In this document: piece after piece, positions 21,137 to 26,479 of the stretch | Layout: the number at the start of each line of letters is the position of its first letter | Numbering within the stretch: position 1 is the stretch's first letter | From: Promethearchaeota archaeon | GTDB lineage: Archaea; Asgardarchaeota; Lokiarchaeia; Sigyniarchaeales; SOKP01 | Direction: 5' to 3' | Assembly: GCA_013375475.1 (NCBI GenBank) | Contig: JABXKD010000001.1 | Coordinates: 64,001-128,000, forward strand | DNA: 64,000 nt | Notes under the pieces: generated by a model | Told to the model about the DNA's origin: nothing | Seen by the model: the letters and a program-made list of their open reading frames with translations, nothing else | The model's database searches: none | Made by a program: the position numbers and the translations under genes

Positions 21137-23110
21137 CTATACATCTTTTAACTTACAGAATAACTCTGCAAAAATTGAATCTTTTCGATAAAAAACCGGA
21201 GGCTGACCTATAGGAGCTTTGACTTTTTTAACACCTTTTTTAAATTCCTCCCCTGACCAGATATGAATCCATACATCGTCCGGAAAATACACTTCCCCTT
21301 CGCTTGAATTCGGTTTTATTATAGGTGCTACCAACAAATCTTGACCGAAAAGATATTGATACTTGAGTTTGTGAAGTTCAGGATCGTTTTCGTAATGAAG
21401 ATAACAAGCTCTAATAGGTGGAAATCCCTTTTCGACATACTCATTTGATAAATGTTGCATGTAAGGTTTAAGATGAGTAAATCTCTGACTCATTTTCGCA
21501 AAGAATTCAAGAGTTTCGTCATCAGAATCAAATTGCCAATTACCGACGGGTCTGATGCTTTCGTGAGTTCGCATTGTCGTTGTAAATACCGCCATTTCAG
21601 CCCATCTCATGAAAATCTCTTTATCTCTAGAGATATGCTCCAATGCGTGGAAACCACCAATATCGTAATGAAAATATCCAATTCCACAAATTCCTAAGGA
21701 TATTCCCGCAGCAATTACCGTTGCTATTCCATCATGAACGCTCCAATTAACAAGTTGATCTCCAGCCCATACTTGTGTCGTATAACGCGATATATGAGAA
21801 TACCCTGCTCTACTGAAAAAGACTATATCACCTAATCTCCCCGCCTCCTCTACTGCCTCTAAATTAGCTTGTGCGAAGATTACAGGGTATTTATTGTGAA
21901 ACTCCTTGGGGTCTTCTCCAGAGTGCAGCGCTACATAAGTAGGAAGATATTCTCCGTAGTCAGCCATCCAGCCAGATAATCCGATATTTATCATATTCTC
22001 CTTTATTACGCTTTTTAACCACTCAATAGTATCAGGATTGCTGAGATCTAGCATAATTTTATCTCCACTATCAGTTACGATAATAAAGGTATCTCCATTT
22101 TGTTCCTTTACGCATAAACCTTTTTCAATAGCTTCTCCGTATTGATTTCCGTTAGGAGCAAGCATAGAATTAATATATCCCAGAAATTTAACCCCCTCGC
22201 TATTAAGTGTTCTTATAAACGACGGTAAATCAGGATATAACGTATCATCGTATTTCCAGTTCCATAATAGCCTTTTAGTCGGACCAATTATGTTCACTCC
22301 TTGCCAGTCTTGGCACCATACGGCCCCAACATTAACTCCTTTCTCTAAACATTTTTTTACTTTTTCCATAACAACATTCTTTCCACCTTGTATACCTAAC
22401 CAAACTCCATCGTAAACCCATTCAGGTAATTTTGGTTGCCTCCCTAAATAATTTGAAAGGCGAGATACGGTATCAAGAGCAGTTTGGTACTTACCAATTA
22501 TAATTATATCCGGAATATTCCAGAAGTATAATTCGTGGTAATCAGGATGAGTGAAATCAAATATTGCGTAGCACAAACTTTCACTATGGAGGTAATAGTT
22601 TTCTGAGGATACAAAGGTTGGTTGAGGAAAATAAGTAGTATACCAATCTCCCGTAATTGGAGGATCACCTCGTCCCACACCTTGCTCTTCAACCCATAAA
22701 GGGACTTTTTTTCCTTTTAAATTTACCTCAGAAAATTGTTCTCCACATCCATATATTGCTTCGCTTTTATTTGCTCGTATTTTAAGCCAAAATCTATTGA
22801 TGTCCGTATTTTCAGATGAAAATTTAATTTCAAGGTGGTCATCCACTATGTTACATGAGACTTTTAGTAAATCCTTTTGCGTTCCGAGCGTTATTTCGAT
22901 TTTGTTGTCTTCTTGACTCAAAATTTCGTACTCTCGAAGTTCTCTTTCAGTCACATCTTTTTCTTTTATTTTAAAATGACCGTGATGTGATTTGAACTTT
23001 CCTTTCCCACTCCCAACTTTTACACACGAATTTTGGCGGGAATGCTCCAAAATAAAATAGTCCTTATAATACAGCCTAAAACCGCTATCTATTGATTCAA
23101 TTTTTAACAT
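21137..23110 (-). CDS. yihQ: GH31 glycosidase, YihQ-like (putative sulfoquinovosidase)
   Basis: EQGVGR, FPQPTFVS, WCQDW, KRLLWNW, WMADYGE nucleophile, WAGDQ acid/base and MRTHE. Confidence 0.82.
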   Translation of the reverse strand: MLKIESIDSGFRLYYKDYFILEHSRQNSCVKVGSGKGKFKSHHGHFKIKEKDVTERELREYEILSQEDNKIEITLGTQKDLLKVSCNIVDDHLEIKFSSENTDINRFWLKIRANKSEAIYGCGEQFSEVNLKGKKVPLWVEEQGVGRGDPPITGDWYTTYFPQPTFVSSENYYLHSESLCYAIFDFTHPDYHELYFWNIPDIIIIGKYQTALDTVSRLSNYLGRQPKLPEWVYDGVWLGIQGGKNVVMEKVKKCLEKGVNVGAVWCQDWQGVNIIGPTKRLLWNWKYDDTLYPDLPSFIRTLNSEGVKFLGYINSMLAPNGNQYGEAIEKGLCVKEQNGDTFIIVTDSGDKIMLDLSNPDTIEWLKSVIKENMINIGLSGWMADYGEYLPTYVALHSGEDPKEFHNKYPVIFAQANLEAVEEAGRLGDIVFFSRAGYSHISRYTTQVWAGDQLVNWSVHDGIATVIAAGISLGICGIGYFHYDIGGFHALEHISRDKEIFMRWAEMAVFTTTMRTHESIRPVGNWQFDSDDETLEFFAKMSQRFTHLKPYMQHLSNEYVEKGFPPIRACYLHYENDPELHKLKYQYLFGQDLLVAPIIKPNSSEGEVYFPDDVWIHIWSGEEFKKGVKKVKAPIGQPPVFYRKDSIFAELFCKLKDV

Positions 23111-23135
23111 TTACCAATAACCAGAATATAGTTTA

Positions 23136-24452
23136 TTATCGAATTACATTCCATCCTTTAATTTTAGCGAAAATTTCTAAGGGTCGTATATAATCATCGT
23201 ACACGACAGATATGTGGTGAGCTATTCCATTATCAATTATTTTCTTTAATACATCTTTTACATGATCTTCAAAAACTGCTTTAGCGTAGGTACCCTTCAA
23301 TTTTTTTTCCATTGGAATAACATTTCCCTTCTGTAAAAAGAGACGGTACTCTCCCGGAGCGTAATCGATTCTTAAAAACGACACTTGCCCAGATTTCATA
23401 ACAAAATCTGCAGTCACTCCTTTTCCTCCAGCAAAATAAGGTTCCAATGATCGATTACATTTTTCATCCCAGAGATTACAAGGAGCCACGCCGCAATGCC
23501 ATAATAAAGCAAAATTTTCTTTTAAATCTACTTGAGAAAAATCCGCCAAGTAGGGAGTTTTTGCTCCAATTGCAGAGTGTGCAACCATGGATAGGCTTCC
23601 AAGTATATCCCCTTCGCATGTGAGTATTTTTCCTTCAGCTTGTAATACGGACATTGCCGCGCAAGGAGCAATACCGAAATCGGTGGCAAATTCGGGCCAA
23701 CACCTTATAGCGAGAGCATCTAATTGATTAGAATTCATAAATTCATTAAATTTACTCGTAAGCTCTGCAACCTTACTTAATTGTTCTTCAGAAATTGATG
23801 ATACATCGAAGATTTTCTTAATCTGTTCTTCTCTTTCTTTACTCTTAGTTGTCTCAACTTCAAATTTATAAATTTCATTTAATTCGAAATGATCTATGAG
23901 AAGTCCAAGCTCTCTATATAAATCCAATTCATCTACATCAAGATTAAAAAAGCCCTTAGCCCGGTATCCTATAATCCCTATACGTTTAGTCGCAAAAGCT
24001 TTTATTATGCGTAGCGAATCCAACCAGTCCTCATCGATCCGATCTCCAATTACTACATGATAATTTTTTACACCCGCTTTATATAAATTGCTTGAATTTA
24101 AATTTATGCCACATACCGAGTTAAGGCGGATTTTTCCCCCATCGTACGGTAATTCATCCAAACCCCATAGCAAAATCGGTTTTTGAATTACTTTGTTTAA
24201 TTCTAAAATCAAGTGGCCTAAAGCAAAAGTTCCGCTAATACAAACTAATCCATCAATACCTTTAGATTTTAATTCTTGGGCTGCCGTTTGTGCGTCCTTG
24301 ATTTCAATTACTAACTCTGAACTGATTTCCCAATCGATATTTTCAATCTTTTTTAATTCGACTTGAATTTTTTTAAAAATATCTTCAGCAGCAATATAAT
24401 CGAACGTCTTCCTCGCTATACAAACAACTCCAACTTTAATTTTTTCCTTCAT
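23136..24452 (-). CDS. L-fucose/L-arabinose isomerase family protein (putative sulfoquinovose isomerase, SqvD/SftI-like)
   Basis: AIRCWPEF, CEGD, LWHCG and AHH motifs; lies between the transaldolase and the GH31 gene. Confidence 0.8.
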   Translation of the reverse strand: MKEKIKVGVVCIARKTFDYIAAEDIFKKIQVELKKIENIDWEISSELVIEIKDAQTAAQELKSKGIDGLVCISGTFALGHLILELNKVIQKPILLWGLDELPYDGGKIRLNSVCGINLNSSNLYKAGVKNYHVVIGDRIDEDWLDSLRIIKAFATKRIGIIGYRAKGFFNLDVDELDLYRELGLLIDHFELNEIYKFEVETTKSKEREEQIKKIFDVSSISEEQLSKVAELTSKFNEFMNSNQLDALAIRCWPEFATDFGIAPCAAMSVLQAEGKILTCEGDILGSLSMVAHSAIGAKTPYLADFSQVDLKENFALLWHCGVAPCNLWDEKCNRSLEPYFAGGKGVTADFVMKSGQVSFLRIDYAPGEYRLFLQKGNVIPMEKKLKGTYAKAVFEDHVKDVLKKIIDNGIAHHISVVYDDYIRPLEIFAKIKGWNVIR

Positions 24453-25194: not shown

Positions 25195-25267
25195 TTTATA
25201 CTCTTCCTATCTTTTATTGCTTTCTATTTTTTATAATTATATAACGATTATAAATTCTCCATAAGAA

Positions 25268-26479
25268 TTACTCACTAAATTTTACATCTTTAAGAAATAA
25301 GGAGAGAAGGAACGATACTAATGAAAAAATCGATAATATGATTAGTGCGGGTAAATAATCTCCCGACGGGGTAGTAAATCCTTCAAATCCTAAAATAAAT
25401 AATATACCGCTAATCGAACCTATTACCATTAACATTCCATTCGAACTTGCTTCCGGAACAGGAACCGTAACATCGACGGTATATTCCAATAGAACAGGCC
25501 CAACAGATAATAAACCGAAGCCTAATAAAAATCCGGTAATGTATAGGAGAAACGTCGTATTCGCAAACGAGATAATAAAAAACGAAACAACGGTGATAAG
25601 TGAAGAGATTTTTATTAACAACGCTCTTTTCCGCAATCTATCTGCTATGGTTGACATCACAGTCGCTCCTATTATACCGCCTAGAATCAACAACCCCCCC
25701 ATATTTCCAACTTCGACTGCCGTTAAACCACGCGGCGCAACTATTAGCTCAATATAAGTTGAAATCATATTAAACGCTCCCAGACCAACGAAAAATATCA
25801 TACCTACAATCCCAAAATACTTGTTAAGGAACAACAGTTTTAATCCTCCTTTTATTACTGTATCCTCTTTTTTAATCCTTATCGATGGTGGGGTGGGAGG
25901 TTCGTCTCGAGTAAATATTACAAAAACAATTCCAATGATTAATGCATATAACCCATAAATAAACAACATAACCTCTATGTTATACAACATTACTAAAATT
26001 GGCGTTAAAAACATTCCAATAGCAATGCCCAACAGTTGAGAGATTATTGAAAGCCCAGTTGCCTTATTTCGCTCCGATTCCGGAAACCAATTTTTAGAAA
26101 ATAACGAAACGCTATTTAGGAAAAATGGTTGACTTAAGGAAATCATGATCTGAACGAATAAAACTAAAAAATAGTCTGGTCCAACTAATACTCTTAGGAA
26201 CCCAAAAACGCCATTAACCATAGCCCCCAACCCTACACCGATTCTAAACCCGAATTTATTAATAAACCAAGTCGCAAAAAATGATACCGGGATATATGTA
26301 ATCATGAAAATCGTAGATAAAAAAAGAATCTCAAATTCGCCTACAGCATAAAAAACGGCTGCCTCGAGTGTTACCGTAGCGTACGATATCCACAAAATCT
26401 GGAGCGATATATTAGCTAACATAAAAATGACTAATAGCACCCAGCGATACCCGTAAACCTGTAACTTTTCTCCAGTCAT
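25268..26479 (-). CDS. MFS transporter
   Basis: 12 TM helices; YRWV.L and WFPESER motifs (SLC49/FLVCR-like). Confidence 0.85.
   Translation of the reverse strand: MTGEKLQVYGYRWVLLVIFMLANISLQILWISYATVTLEAAVFYAVGEFEILFLSTIFMITYIPVSFFATWFINKFGFRIGVGLGAMVNGVFGFLRVLVGPDYFLVLFVQIMISLSQPFFLNSVSLFSKNWFPESERNKATGLSIISQLLGIAIGMFLTPILVMLYNIEVMLFIYGLYALIIGIVFVIFTRDEPPTPPSIRIKKEDTVIKGGLKLLFLNKYFGIVGMIFFVGLGAFNMISTYIELIVAPRGLTAVEVGNMGGLLILGGIIGATVMSTIADRLRKRALLIKISSLITVVSFFIISFANTTFLLYITGFLLGFGLLSVGPVLLEYTVDVTVPVPEASSNGMLMVIGSISGILFILGFEGFTTPSGDYLPALIILSIFSLVSFLLSLFLKDVKFSE

Follow-up and report, generated by a model that had tools for sequence, protein, structure and literature searches.

A predicted sulfofructose transaldolase pathway core in an Asgard archaeon of marine sediment

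Sulfoquinovose, a sulfur-containing sugar, is abundant in the membranes of plants and algae; Asgard archaea, among known prokaryotes the closest relatives of eukaryotes, grow slowly as syntrophs in sediments. The locus described here raises the question of whether such an archaeon is equipped to break this sugar down. The DNA analyzed, referred to throughout as the window, is a stretch of 64,000 nt from a Promethearchaeota archaeon (GCA_013375475.1, contig JABXKD010000001.1, positions 64,001-128,000), and all coordinates are window-based. It contains a compact operon with genes for a transaldolase of the sulfofructose (SF) type, a sugar isomerase and a GH31 glycosidase, which, judged from sequence, very probably encode the core of the SF transaldolase (sulfo-TAL/SFT) sulfoglycolytic pathway. 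Production of sulfoquinovose is put at ~10 billion tonnes/year, with its degradation forming one of the main connections between carbon and sulfur cycling (PMC12890257; PMC10755693). A 2026 review lists sulfo-TAL for Firmicutes, Thermotogae and Chloroflexi and states that no archaeal pathway has been characterized (PMC12890257), in agreement with what the original prediction for this DNA, made from its letters alone, had supposed. In a literature search combining sulfoquinovose or sulfoglycolysis with Asgard, Lokiarchaeota or archaea, which covered titles and abstracts but neither supplements nor subscription journals, only N-glycan, lipid, bacterial or unrelated work was returned; in passages of PMC13436972 and PMC13372026, archaea appear only in other contexts.

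Core enzymes of the operon

The list of open reading frames (ORFs) shows five co-directional genes on the minus strand, running from 27312 to 21137 and separated, in gene order, by 17, 73, 73 and 25 bp:

27313..27491, no strand: divergent intergenic region, 179 bp, AT-rich, presumed promoter region (by inspection of the letters only)
26497..27312, minus: alpha/beta-hydrolase, 271 aa, first gene of the operon (Abhydrolase_1, 102 bits; no specific NCBIfam assignment)
25268..26479, minus: MFS_1 transporter, 403 aa (MFS_1, 124 bits; best NCBIfam match weak, a D-galactonate (organic anion) transporter subfamily at 55 bits)
24526..25194, minus: SF transaldolase of the SqvA/SftT type, 222 aa (TAL_FSA PF00923, 143 bits; PDB 8bc3, 306 bits)
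23136..24452, minus: divergent SftI/SqvD-like isomerase, candidate sulfoquinovose-sulfofructose isomerase, 438 aa (Fucose_iso_C; NF048012, 240 bits)
21137..23110, minus: GH31 sulfoquinovosidase candidate of the YihQ/SftG type, 657 aa, with Phe-His replacing the sulfonate-binding Tyr (three GH31 Pfam domains; NF007746)

The original prediction had described four tightly spaced co-directional genes, from the MFS transporter to the GH31 enzyme. All four ORFs are present exactly as it placed them, the hydrolase gene being a fifth, upstream member, and the translated proteins contain all of its quoted motifs, namely NPKH, SPFIGW and VRNGKQI for the transaldolase and QDW, KRLLW, RTHE and DIGGF for the GH31 protein. 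The genes for the sulfoquinovosidase candidate, the isomerase and the SF transaldolase are adjacent, with gaps of 25-73 bp, as in the core cluster that defines sulfo-TAL.

A HMMER search of the transaldolase against all PDB sequences returned the B. megaterium SF transaldolase as the best match (8bc2, 8bc3 and 8bc4; 303-306 bits, E ~1e-90, end to end), compared with 169 bits for the best ordinary transaldolase, 1vpx, and 67 bits for E. coli fructose-6-phosphate aldolase (FSA). Identity to the solved B. megaterium enzyme is ~64%, with 139/217 positions counted on the HMMER midline, which bears out the close likeness to Bacillus SqvA that the original prediction had claimed. The ordinary fsa/talC model of NCBIfam, TIGR00875, scored 187 bits, under its cut-off of 246. 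We then placed the protein in a quick IQ-TREE phylogeny of 91 rows: the window enzyme, 31 other archaeal and 51 bacterial sequences from loci fetched using the window transaldolase, and eight ordinary transaldolases (Tal) of the same genus as outgroup. The window enzyme lies within an 83-row SF transaldolase (SF-TAL) clade, and the branch to ordinary Tal measures 2.2 + 2.2 changes/column (~4.4) with 100% support. Grouping with housekeeping Tal, an outcome that would have spoken against the original prediction, is thus not what the tree shows.

Residues were counted in the full alignment of 98 rows, five duplicates included, which holds 90 SF-TAL-clade rows and the eight ordinary Tal. Schiff-base Lys88, within the motif FVIKIP, is invariant in 98/98 rows and aligns with the lysine of the B. 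megaterium enzyme (BmSF-TAL), for which Lys89 is the named Schiff-base residue (PMC12890257). His31, Trp137, Glu139 and Gln175 are invariant in 90/90 clade rows and are also present in BmSF-TAL; all eight ordinary Tal differ in these columns, with Leu, Arg, Met and His, respectively. Some of the four residues may belong to a sulfonate pocket that takes the place of the phosphate pocket of ordinary Tal. The contrast with ordinary Tal that had been drawn from the strings NPSL, SPFVGR and SIRHP is therefore real, and the strings themselves were approximate: in the eight same-genus proteins the corresponding columns read NP(T/S)L, SPFIGR and SVRNSRH.

The isomerase had no match at E <= 0.1 among all PDB sequences. 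Its sole NCBIfam match, over the full length, is NF048012, 'sulfoquinovose isomerase SftI', at 240 bits, which is under the equivalog cut-off of 700. Ten of ten cluster-linked homologues, bacterial and archaeal, also match NF048012 only, at 175-408 bits and under the cut-off; because these transaldolase-linked proteins fall short too, we consider the model narrow and the family wider than the model. The branch to which the window protein belongs is distant from the gut-Clostridia type, at 24-28% identity. An AlphaFold model computed with a 13-sequence alignment (predicted local distance difference test, pLDDT, 90.8; predicted template-modelling score, pTM, 0.91) resembles L-arabinose isomerases with a template-modelling (TM) score of 0.86 (E 6e-27) and L-fucose isomerases with TM scores of 0.76-0.81, and the modelled fold suits an aldose-ketose isomerase. 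E280, D282, H319 and H413, invariant in the 13 sequences, would serve as metal ligands, and linkage to the transaldolase and GH31 genes suggests that the substrate is sulfoquinovose.

The GH31 protein passes the curated NCBIfam model NF007746 (790.6 bits, cut-off 553), which is labelled alpha-glucosidase and which we take to describe the E. coli YihQ family. Its leading PDB matches are five solved sulfoquinovosidase sequences: 8r56 (657 bits), E. coli YihQ (626), 6pnr (613) and the Agrobacterium enzyme (504-507). Of these, 8r56 is presumably the SftG structure from E. rectale described in PMC11968277, in whose text the code was not found. The best GH31 protein of other specificity in the same search, YicI, reached 145 bits, so that the window enzyme sides with the solved sulfoquinovosidases and not, as the original prediction had allowed might happen, with alpha-glucosidases.

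Substrate recognition by YihQ involves Gln288, Arg301, Trp304 and Tyr508, of which Tyr508 hydrogen-bonds the sulfonate, together with the nucleophile Asp405, the acid/base Asp472 and His537 (PMC12780224; bioRxiv 10.64898/2026.02.11.705467). We examined these columns in an alignment of 55 cluster-linked GH31 proteins, 14 Asgard and 41 bacterial. Six of the seven residues are kept in the window protein (Q288, R301, W304, D405, D472 and H537), both catalytic aspartates among them, and the YihQ-type motifs QDW, KRxxW (here KRLLW) and RTHE had been read correctly, as had DIGGF. The Y508 column holds Phe, followed by His ('GGFH'), which leaves three of the four residues of the Q/E-RWY motif. Phe occupies this column, again as part of 'GGFH', in 8/14 Asgard proteins and 0/41 bacterial ones. 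Because the Tyr of the motif is Phe, we classify the protein as a candidate variant sulfoquinovosidase rather than a proven member.

A separate observation concerns the motif itself. The column of YihQ Arg301 holds Gln in 29/41 bacterial (L047-L092) and 8/14 Asgard GH31 proteins linked to SF transaldolases; with Gln so frequent there, the published RWY motif would be non-universal in the 55-protein set, unless the alignment shifts the Arg.

The alpha/beta-hydrolase, which has a 66% homologue upstream of the transaldolase gene in another archaeal locus (L018), is a candidate esterase that could remove the acyl chains of sulfolipid. The MFS transporter, with an 80% homologue inside the cluster of locus L013, might import sulfoquinovose or the glycerol glycoside of this sugar, or alternatively export the three-carbon (C3) sulfonate.

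Host and history of the gene cluster

The genome is a bin of 288 contigs, rated 100% complete and 6.4% contaminated, and the window lies on its largest contig, C111 (170,788 bp). An archaeal small-subunit (SSU) rRNA (1238 bits) is found on C222; a bacterial SSU rRNA (1534 bits), two tRNAs and a partial large-subunit (LSU) rRNA sit on the 16.9-kb contig C263, which is probably a contaminant. With a bacterial rRNA contig and 6.4% contamination in the bin, ownership of C111 needed proof, as C111 could itself be a bacterial contaminant or a chimera within the archaeal bin and the pathway bacterial. Besides the rRNA contig, two results count against archaeal ownership. In a principal component analysis of tetranucleotide frequencies (contigs >=8 kb), C111 (-1.08 on the first axis) is not separated from C263 (-1.15), while C222 lies at +0.61; and none of 16 matches to TFIIB in the genome falls on C111, which says nothing about this contig either way. 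Along the tetranucleotide axis the contigs grade into one another in step with GC content, and Ras genes are also present on others that lie on the same side as C111. Because composition could not assign C111, its assignment rests on gene-level evidence.

That evidence points to an archaeon. One full-length Ras-family GTPase (134 bits) is encoded on C111, among 70 Ras-family matches in the genome; abundant Ras-family genes are a hallmark of Asgard genomes. The window also carries an archaeal helix-turn-helix (HTH) regulator of the HVO_0163 type. The threonine synthase ThrC encoded 19 kb from the operon tracks kinship, with 60-91% identity in 11/24 same-genus and 52-57% in 7/16 same-order genomes. 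The closest locus, L013, has the MFS (80%), MeaB (92%) and creatininase-like (80%) genes in common with the window. Positions 15000-34900 are evenly covered by contigs of four marine-sediment runs from two studies (depth ~50, 20, 10 and 3; one run may be the source), and depth is flat across the operon and its flanks; runs with less than 0.2 of the sampled words were left aside.

The transaldolase has its own counterparts in archaea. Among species representatives, the 24 loci that match best (72-87% identity) all come from separately deposited archaeal records of metagenome-assembled genomes, with three more archaeal loci at 63-65%, whereas the best bacterial loci, from Caloramator, reach 70% and none is higher. 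Among the 27 archaeal locus titles, 19 name Promethearchaeota or subgroups, 2 Hermodarchaeota and 1 Hodarchaeota, the other 5 reading 'uncultured archaeon'. Of the 120 best proteins in a set of 5.8 billion (74-92% identity), 14 carry an organism label, and all 14 labels are Asgard phyla. The host had been suspected to be an Asgard archaeon, and the labelled homologues (14/14), the taxon-titled archaeal loci (22/22), the Ras gene and the kinship of ThrC uphold this; the bacterial contig named as a possible refutation is contradicted by the same Ras GTPase, regulator, ThrC and archaeal counterparts. With the transaldolase type also present in 38/400 genomes of the phylum, the contaminant explanation is already close to refuted, and we give it only the slightest probability. 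The host of the window is an Asgard (Promethearchaeota) archaeon of marine sediment. Since the names given to close homologues are only 'transaldolase' or 'transaldolase family protein', the key enzyme would be missed in metagenome surveys.

SF-type transaldolases at 64-77% identity were found in 12/40 relatives, 6/24 of the genus and 6/16 of the order. Across 400 Asgard species genomes (E <= 1e-70), the 38 with the enzyme comprise 25/134 of the window's family, 6/14 and 3/4 of two sister families, and 1 each of three other families; the pathway is widespread within one Asgard order. In the 27 archaeal loci from other genomes, searched by tblastn and several of them ending at contig edges, the isomerase gene is linked to the transaldolase gene in 20 and the GH31 gene in 14, nearly always in the order transaldolase-isomerase-GH31. 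With these frequencies the gene combination is not chance. Most fetched bacterial loci have the order GH31-transaldolase-(gap)-isomerase.

All 18 Asgard rows of the isomerase tree fall into a single clade (99% support), as do all 14 of the GH31 tree (100% support). The 32 Asgard rows of the transaldolase tree can form one side of a branch with 71% support, a 26-row core having 97%, and when ordinary Tal serve as outgroup they branch from among bacterial rows. The bacteria nearest to the Asgard rows include Caloramator in all three trees and, in the transaldolase and isomerase trees, also uncultured Clostridia, Spirochaetota and Planctomycetota records. Because Asgard rows are nested among bacteria and GH31 identity within Asgard extends down to 47%, the data fit one joint bacterial transfer followed by long divergence: most likely the three core genes were acquired together from Bacillota-related bacteria and then diversified within Asgard. 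This account is limited by the choice of bacterial rows, which comprise only the 53 loci closest to the query, too narrow a sample to name the donor or count the transfers.

Identical transaldolase proteins also occur in records of Butyricicoccaceae, Phascolarctobacterium, Muribaculaceae, Bacteroidaceae and Paludibacteraceae (L052, L063 and L064, with L058 and L059 duplicates of L063), which points either to an exchange of very recent date between gut bacteria or to contigs placed in the wrong bins.

Neighbouring genes and the fate of sulfolactaldehyde

A divergent operon on the plus strand starts 179 bp from the hydrolase gene, and 3 kb from the sulfo-TAL operon it encodes a candidate for a second sulfoquinovosidase, which the first reading of this DNA had overlooked. 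Its genes are:

27492..29180, plus: Fe-S protein, 562 aa, first gene of the divergent operon, of an Asgard-specific family with an unknown N-terminal domain and two [4Fe-4S] motifs (Fer4 only)
29277..30482, plus: Fe-S paralogue of the same family, 401 aa (Fer4 only; PDB matches confined to residues ~285-385)
30545..31765, plus: GH188 NAD-dependent sulfoquinovosidase candidate, SqgA-like, 406 aa, a Gfo/Idh/MocA protein (PDB 8qc3, 213 bits)
31731..33014, plus: threonine-synthase-like pyridoxal-phosphate (PLP) enzyme, 427 aa, overlapping the GH188 gene by 35 bp (NF006050, 557 bits; PDB threonine synthases <=160 bits)
33008..34270, plus: YeiH-family transporter, 'putative sulfate export transporter', 420 aa, with a 7-bp overlap with the PLP-enzyme gene (PF03601, 223 bits; TIGR00698, 139 bits, under cut-off)

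The best PDB matches of the GH188 candidate are the Arthrobacter enzyme ArSqgA (8qc3, 213 bits), 8zn9 (212) and the Flavobacterium enzyme FlSqgA (8qc2, 201), the next match scoring 65 bits. ArSqgA (8QC3/5/6) and FlSqgA (8QC2/8) are founding NAD-dependent sulfoquinovosidases of GH188, and in ArSqgA sulfoquinovose is contacted by Lys107, Tyr136, Arg166, the Leu170 backbone, Lys172, Glu189, His193 and His321 (PMC10755693). In the HMMER alignment to 8qc3, where the chain number is the paper's number + 13, all 8/8 contacting residues are identical in the window protein. When four candidates per genome were scored, the GH188 type was present in 5/400 Asgard genomes, the window's included.

The surroundings of the GH188 gene vary. 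The Fe-S protein at 27492-29180 has a 57% homologue directly before the GH188 gene in L102, from a same-genus genome, and the PLP enzyme at 31731-33014 has a 69% homologue adjoining GH31 in L029. The second ThrC-like copy, at 5554-6822 beside a homoserine dehydrogenase gene, is the likely housekeeping ThrC. We considered GH188, the ThrC-like protein and YeiH as a conserved unit and rejected the idea, these neighbours being present in 0/4 other GH188 loci. Because the trio is not conserved there, nothing supports a conceivable role of the ThrC-like enzyme, translationally coupled to the GH188 gene and YeiH, in the handling of sulfonate or sulfite.

Ten full-length paralogues of the ~400-aa Fe-S family, 35-50% identical and with an unknown Cys-rich N-terminal domain, lie in the window, and about 21 copies occur genome-wide on 5 contigs. 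Besides the two listed above (27492-29180 and 29277-30482), they are at:

35660-36898, Fe-S-family paralogue
42686-43852, Fe-S-family paralogue
43908-45110, Fe-S-family paralogue
45218-46402, Fe-S-family paralogue
46429-47595, Fe-S-family paralogue
49569-50747, Fe-S-family paralogue
50850-52058, Fe-S-family paralogue
59825-60991, Fe-S-family paralogue

Seven of the ten were scanned in Pfam, and each has two C-terminal [4Fe-4S] motifs except that at 35660-36898, which had no Pfam match. The Atlas clusters of the family are almost all from Promethearchaeota. Their Atlas name, 'putative dissimilatory sulfite reductase A', was rejected, as Pfam finds no sulfite-reductase domain, and a search of PDB sequences with a family member matched the ferredoxin domain alone.

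On the 3' side of the GH31 gene, beyond a 424-bp gap, follow genes for a MeaB GTPase, a creatininase-like protein, a GPH-family MFS_2 transporter and a carboxylesterase. The gap holds a small minus-strand ORF (20848-21047, ~66 codons, with a hydrophobic C-terminal stretch), after which a run of eight T may be the operon terminator. At 15503-18579, 2.5 kb downstream of GH31 on the same strand, the MFS_2 sugar symporter (188 bits) and the 500-aa carboxylesterase (405 bits) may share the operon's function in uptake and deacylation; the sulfoquinovose transporters of E. coli are of the GPH family. Scans of the window for tRNA and Rfam families gave no matches.

In the bacterial pathway, sulfolactaldehyde is reduced to 2,3-dihydroxypropanesulfonate (DHPS) or oxidized to sulfolactate, and the product is exported (PMC11968277; PMC12890257). 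Here the evidence weighs against a complete pathway at the locus. Pfam and NCBIfam scans revealed no sulfolactaldehyde reductase or dehydrogenase and no sulfonate exporter in the operon or its flanks. The one beta-hydroxyacid dehydrogenase that the genome encodes, on contig C278, is unlinked and only 31% identical to the cluster-linked Asgard type, and it scores 257 bits with the tartronate-semialdehyde reductase model and 130 bits with that for sulfolactaldehyde reductase, both under cut-off. The two aldehyde dehydrogenases of the genome lie on C39 and C229, neither linked to the operon. With no reductase orthologue present and no aldehyde dehydrogenase linked, the pathway as encoded at the locus is open-ended.

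A candidate for closing it lies 13 kb from the operon, as a trio on the minus strand between 41928 and 38378:

41509..41928, minus: Fe-S electron-transfer subunit of the candidate sulfolactaldehyde-oxidizing module, 139 aa (65%, 59% and 56% identical to subunits preceding the oxidoreductase in L015, L019 and L101)
39687..41504, minus: tungsten-type aldehyde:ferredoxin oxidoreductase (AOR), 605 aa (AFOR_N + AFOR_C; P. furiosus AOR 1aor, 430 bits)
38378..39652, minus: LarA-like nickel-pincer 2-hydroxyacid isomerase/racemase, 424 aa, directly downstream of the AOR gene (NF052515, 459 bits, cut-off 400)

In the Asgard loci L015 and L019, genes for an Fe-S subunit and an AOR stand between those for transaldolase and isomerase, and in L019 a LarA-like gene comes next. 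The window AOR is 74% identical to the L015 copy, 69% to the L019 copy and 67-68% to a copy in L101 that lies ~3 kb from the isomerase gene there. With the AOR inside the L015 cluster, the remaining AOR paralogues of the window genome share 33-36% identity. The window LarA-like protein is 54% identical to the L019 copy and had no match among PDB sequences. We expected AOR and transaldolase to co-occur among relatives, and this was not seen: an AOR orthologue above 43% identity is present in 0/12 transaldolase-positive relatives and 1/28 negatives (G023, 67%), and a LarA-like gene in 0/24 same-genus genomes. Because the orthologue does not track the transaldolase, we keep AOR as a candidate only; that it oxidizes sulfolactaldehyde to sulfolactate in this organism is possible, though the odds are against it.

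The locus in G023 that has the AOR orthologue is of a different kind. L101 (G023:C45:3000-22900) carries Fe-S, AOR, SorA-like molybdoenzyme, Glu/Leu/Phe/Val-dehydrogenase-CBS fusion and SftI-like isomerase (66%) genes, with a GH4 glycosidase nearby; no SF-type transaldolase was found in G023, and the gene run may represent a different, undescribed route from sulfofructose.

Other Asgard clusters add further genes for C3 sulfonates. A sulfolactaldehyde-reductase-like gene stands between those for transaldolase and isomerase in 4 loci, and an AEC-family exporter gene is present in 6. L013 (12113-13315) encodes a fused sulfopyruvate/phosphonopyruvate-decarboxylase-like thiamine-pyrophosphate (TPP) enzyme. 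SorA-like molybdoenzymes, resembling sulfite dehydrogenases, are encoded in L025, L028 and L101, and those of L025 (8787-9839) and L028 (7095-8147) are fused to the membrane domain DUF4079. The decarboxylase-like and SorA-like genes hint that some Asgard lineages proceed to desulfonate the C3 product. The ComDE-like, SorA-like and c29 genes of other Asgard clusters have no homologue in the window genome.

These arrangements allow a ferredoxin-linked Asgard sulfoglycolysis to be imagined, a proposal that we hold even more tentatively than the role of AOR and consider rather unlikely. In place of the NAD(H)-dependent step of bacteria, the tungsten AOR and its Fe-S partner would oxidize sulfolactaldehyde to sulfolactate, which a LarA-type racemase might invert; reduced ferredoxin would feed H2 or formate production; and the excreted sulfonate, or in some lineages sulfite released by ComDE- and SorA-like enzymes, would pass to sulfate- or sulfite-reducing partners. 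If this is true, syntrophy of Asgard archaea in sediments would rest in part on sulfosugar breakdown as a material basis, and two mechanistically different sulfoquinovosidases in one locus would widen the range of usable glycosides.

Proposed pathway, alternatives and known systems

In the pathway that we propose, glycosides of sulfoquinovose, perhaps deacylated by the alpha/beta-hydrolase, would be imported by the MFS transporter, and GH31 and/or the NAD-dependent GH188 enzyme would release sulfoquinovose from them. The arabinose-isomerase-fold enzyme would convert sulfoquinovose to sulfofructose. Using Schiff-base Lys88, the transaldolase would transfer the C1-C3 unit of sulfofructose to glyceraldehyde 3-phosphate, giving fructose 6-phosphate, which would feed glycolysis, and sulfolactaldehyde as by-product. 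The latter might be processed by the Fe-S/AOR/LarA-like module at a distance of 13 kb, by the unlinked beta-hydroxyacid dehydrogenase or by one of the two aldehyde dehydrogenases, which are unlinked as well. Which substrates are used, in which direction the transporter works and what becomes of sulfolactaldehyde are suggestions from gene content; so are fermentation and plant or algal sulfolipid as the source of the sugar. Sequence, fold, residues and genomic context together give the functional assignment of the core good support.

Several findings nevertheless weigh against this pathway, and they lend themselves to the explanation that the genes act elsewhere, the transaldolase as a housekeeping enzyme of the pentose-phosphate route and the GH31 enzyme and isomerase on an ordinary or differently substituted alpha-glycoside. 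The operon transaldolase is the sole TAL_FSA gene of the genome, and among 24 same-genus genomes (G001-G024), which are related so that the counts are non-independent, 6 have the SF type only, 8 the ordinary type only, 10 neither and 0 both. The SF-type enzyme could thus also serve a pentose-phosphate role, or the pattern may be meaningless; with a single transaldolase-family gene and two types never found together in the genus, the enzyme may have a housekeeping role. The Phe in place of Tyr508, the isomerase score under the family cut-off and the retention in G023 of an isomerase (66%) where no SF-type transaldolase was found point the same way. On the other side, the transaldolase is ~64% identical to an enzyme shown to use sulfofructose, and the Arg of SPF(I/V)GR, which we take to be the phosphate binder of ordinary transaldolases, is Trp in every SF-TAL-clade row. 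The sulfonate-pocket residues Arg301 and Trp304 are kept in the GH31 protein, a GH188 enzyme that is sulfoquinovoside-specific by its residues is encoded 3 kb away, and other Asgard clusters add genes for C3 sulfonates (reductase-like in 4 loci, AEC in 6, decarboxylase-like in 1 and SorA-like in 3). We therefore consider action on other substrates improbable.

The sugar might also come from elsewhere. The pathway could operate as described on sulfoquinovose from archaeal N-glycans or other sedimentary glycoconjugates, and not on phototroph sulfolipid. Sulfoquinovose is a constituent of Sulfolobus N-glycans (PMC11284389; PMC12890257), other Asgard clusters sit among GH2, GH3, GH4 and sulfatase genes, and the organism lives in marine sediment. 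Against this, the alpha/beta-hydrolase encoded first in the operon would suit a lipid-linked substrate, and both sulfoquinovosidase families were characterized on sulfoquinovosyl glycerol and sulfolipid (PMC10755693; PMC12780224), so that we judge this source marginally less probable still than action on other substrates. The reading that we prefer remains a sulfo-TAL core acting on sulfoquinovose.

If so, a known kind of pathway, so far described in bacteria only, is present in an archaeon, and it recurs, its transaldolase type being found in 38/400 Asgard genomes. It gives Asgard archaea a concrete, testable enrichment substrate and raises the possibility that organosulfonates are handed over to sulfur-reducing partners. 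For enzymology, the Phe-His sulfoquinovosidase and the joint occurrence of GH31 and GH188 in one locus are natural variants. Together with the lack of a canonical sulfolactaldehyde enzyme, these two features are the local peculiarities of the window.

Comparison with characterized enzymes delimits what is shared. Ordinary short (type 3B) transaldolases and fructose-6-phosphate aldolases have the fold and the Schiff-base lysine in common with the window transaldolase, which is 38-42% identical to the ordinary Tal of its own genus and differs in having Trp for the Arg of SPFxGR and His for the Leu of NPxL. Compared with YihQ of E. coli and the sulfoquinovosidase of A. tumefaciens, the window GH31 enzyme keeps Gln288, Arg301, Trp304, Asp405, Asp472 and His537, and Tyr508 is replaced by Phe-His. 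The GH188 candidate has in common with the Arthrobacter and Flavobacterium SqgA enzymes the EKP lysine, Tyr136, the sulfonate binders Arg166 and Lys172, Glu189, His193 and His321. According to the available text of the founding study, GH188 and GH31 have complementary distributions, GH188 clusters are without GH31, and GH188 genes occur in 'a small number of archaea', which that text leaves unnamed (PMC10755693); in the window, by contrast, GH31 and GH188 lie <10 kb apart. Relative to the sulfo-TAL/SFT pathway of Bacillota (B. megaterium SqvA-D; SftT/SftI/SftG of B. aryabhattai and E. rectale), the window cluster has no SftR/YihU reductase, SftD/SlaB dehydrogenase or SftE exporter, and DUF4867 (SftX) was not seen among the 40 window ORFs scanned in Pfam. 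What the window has in common with the Bacillota pathway is the same three core enzymes, here in an archaeal host and in the gene order transaldolase-isomerase-GH31.

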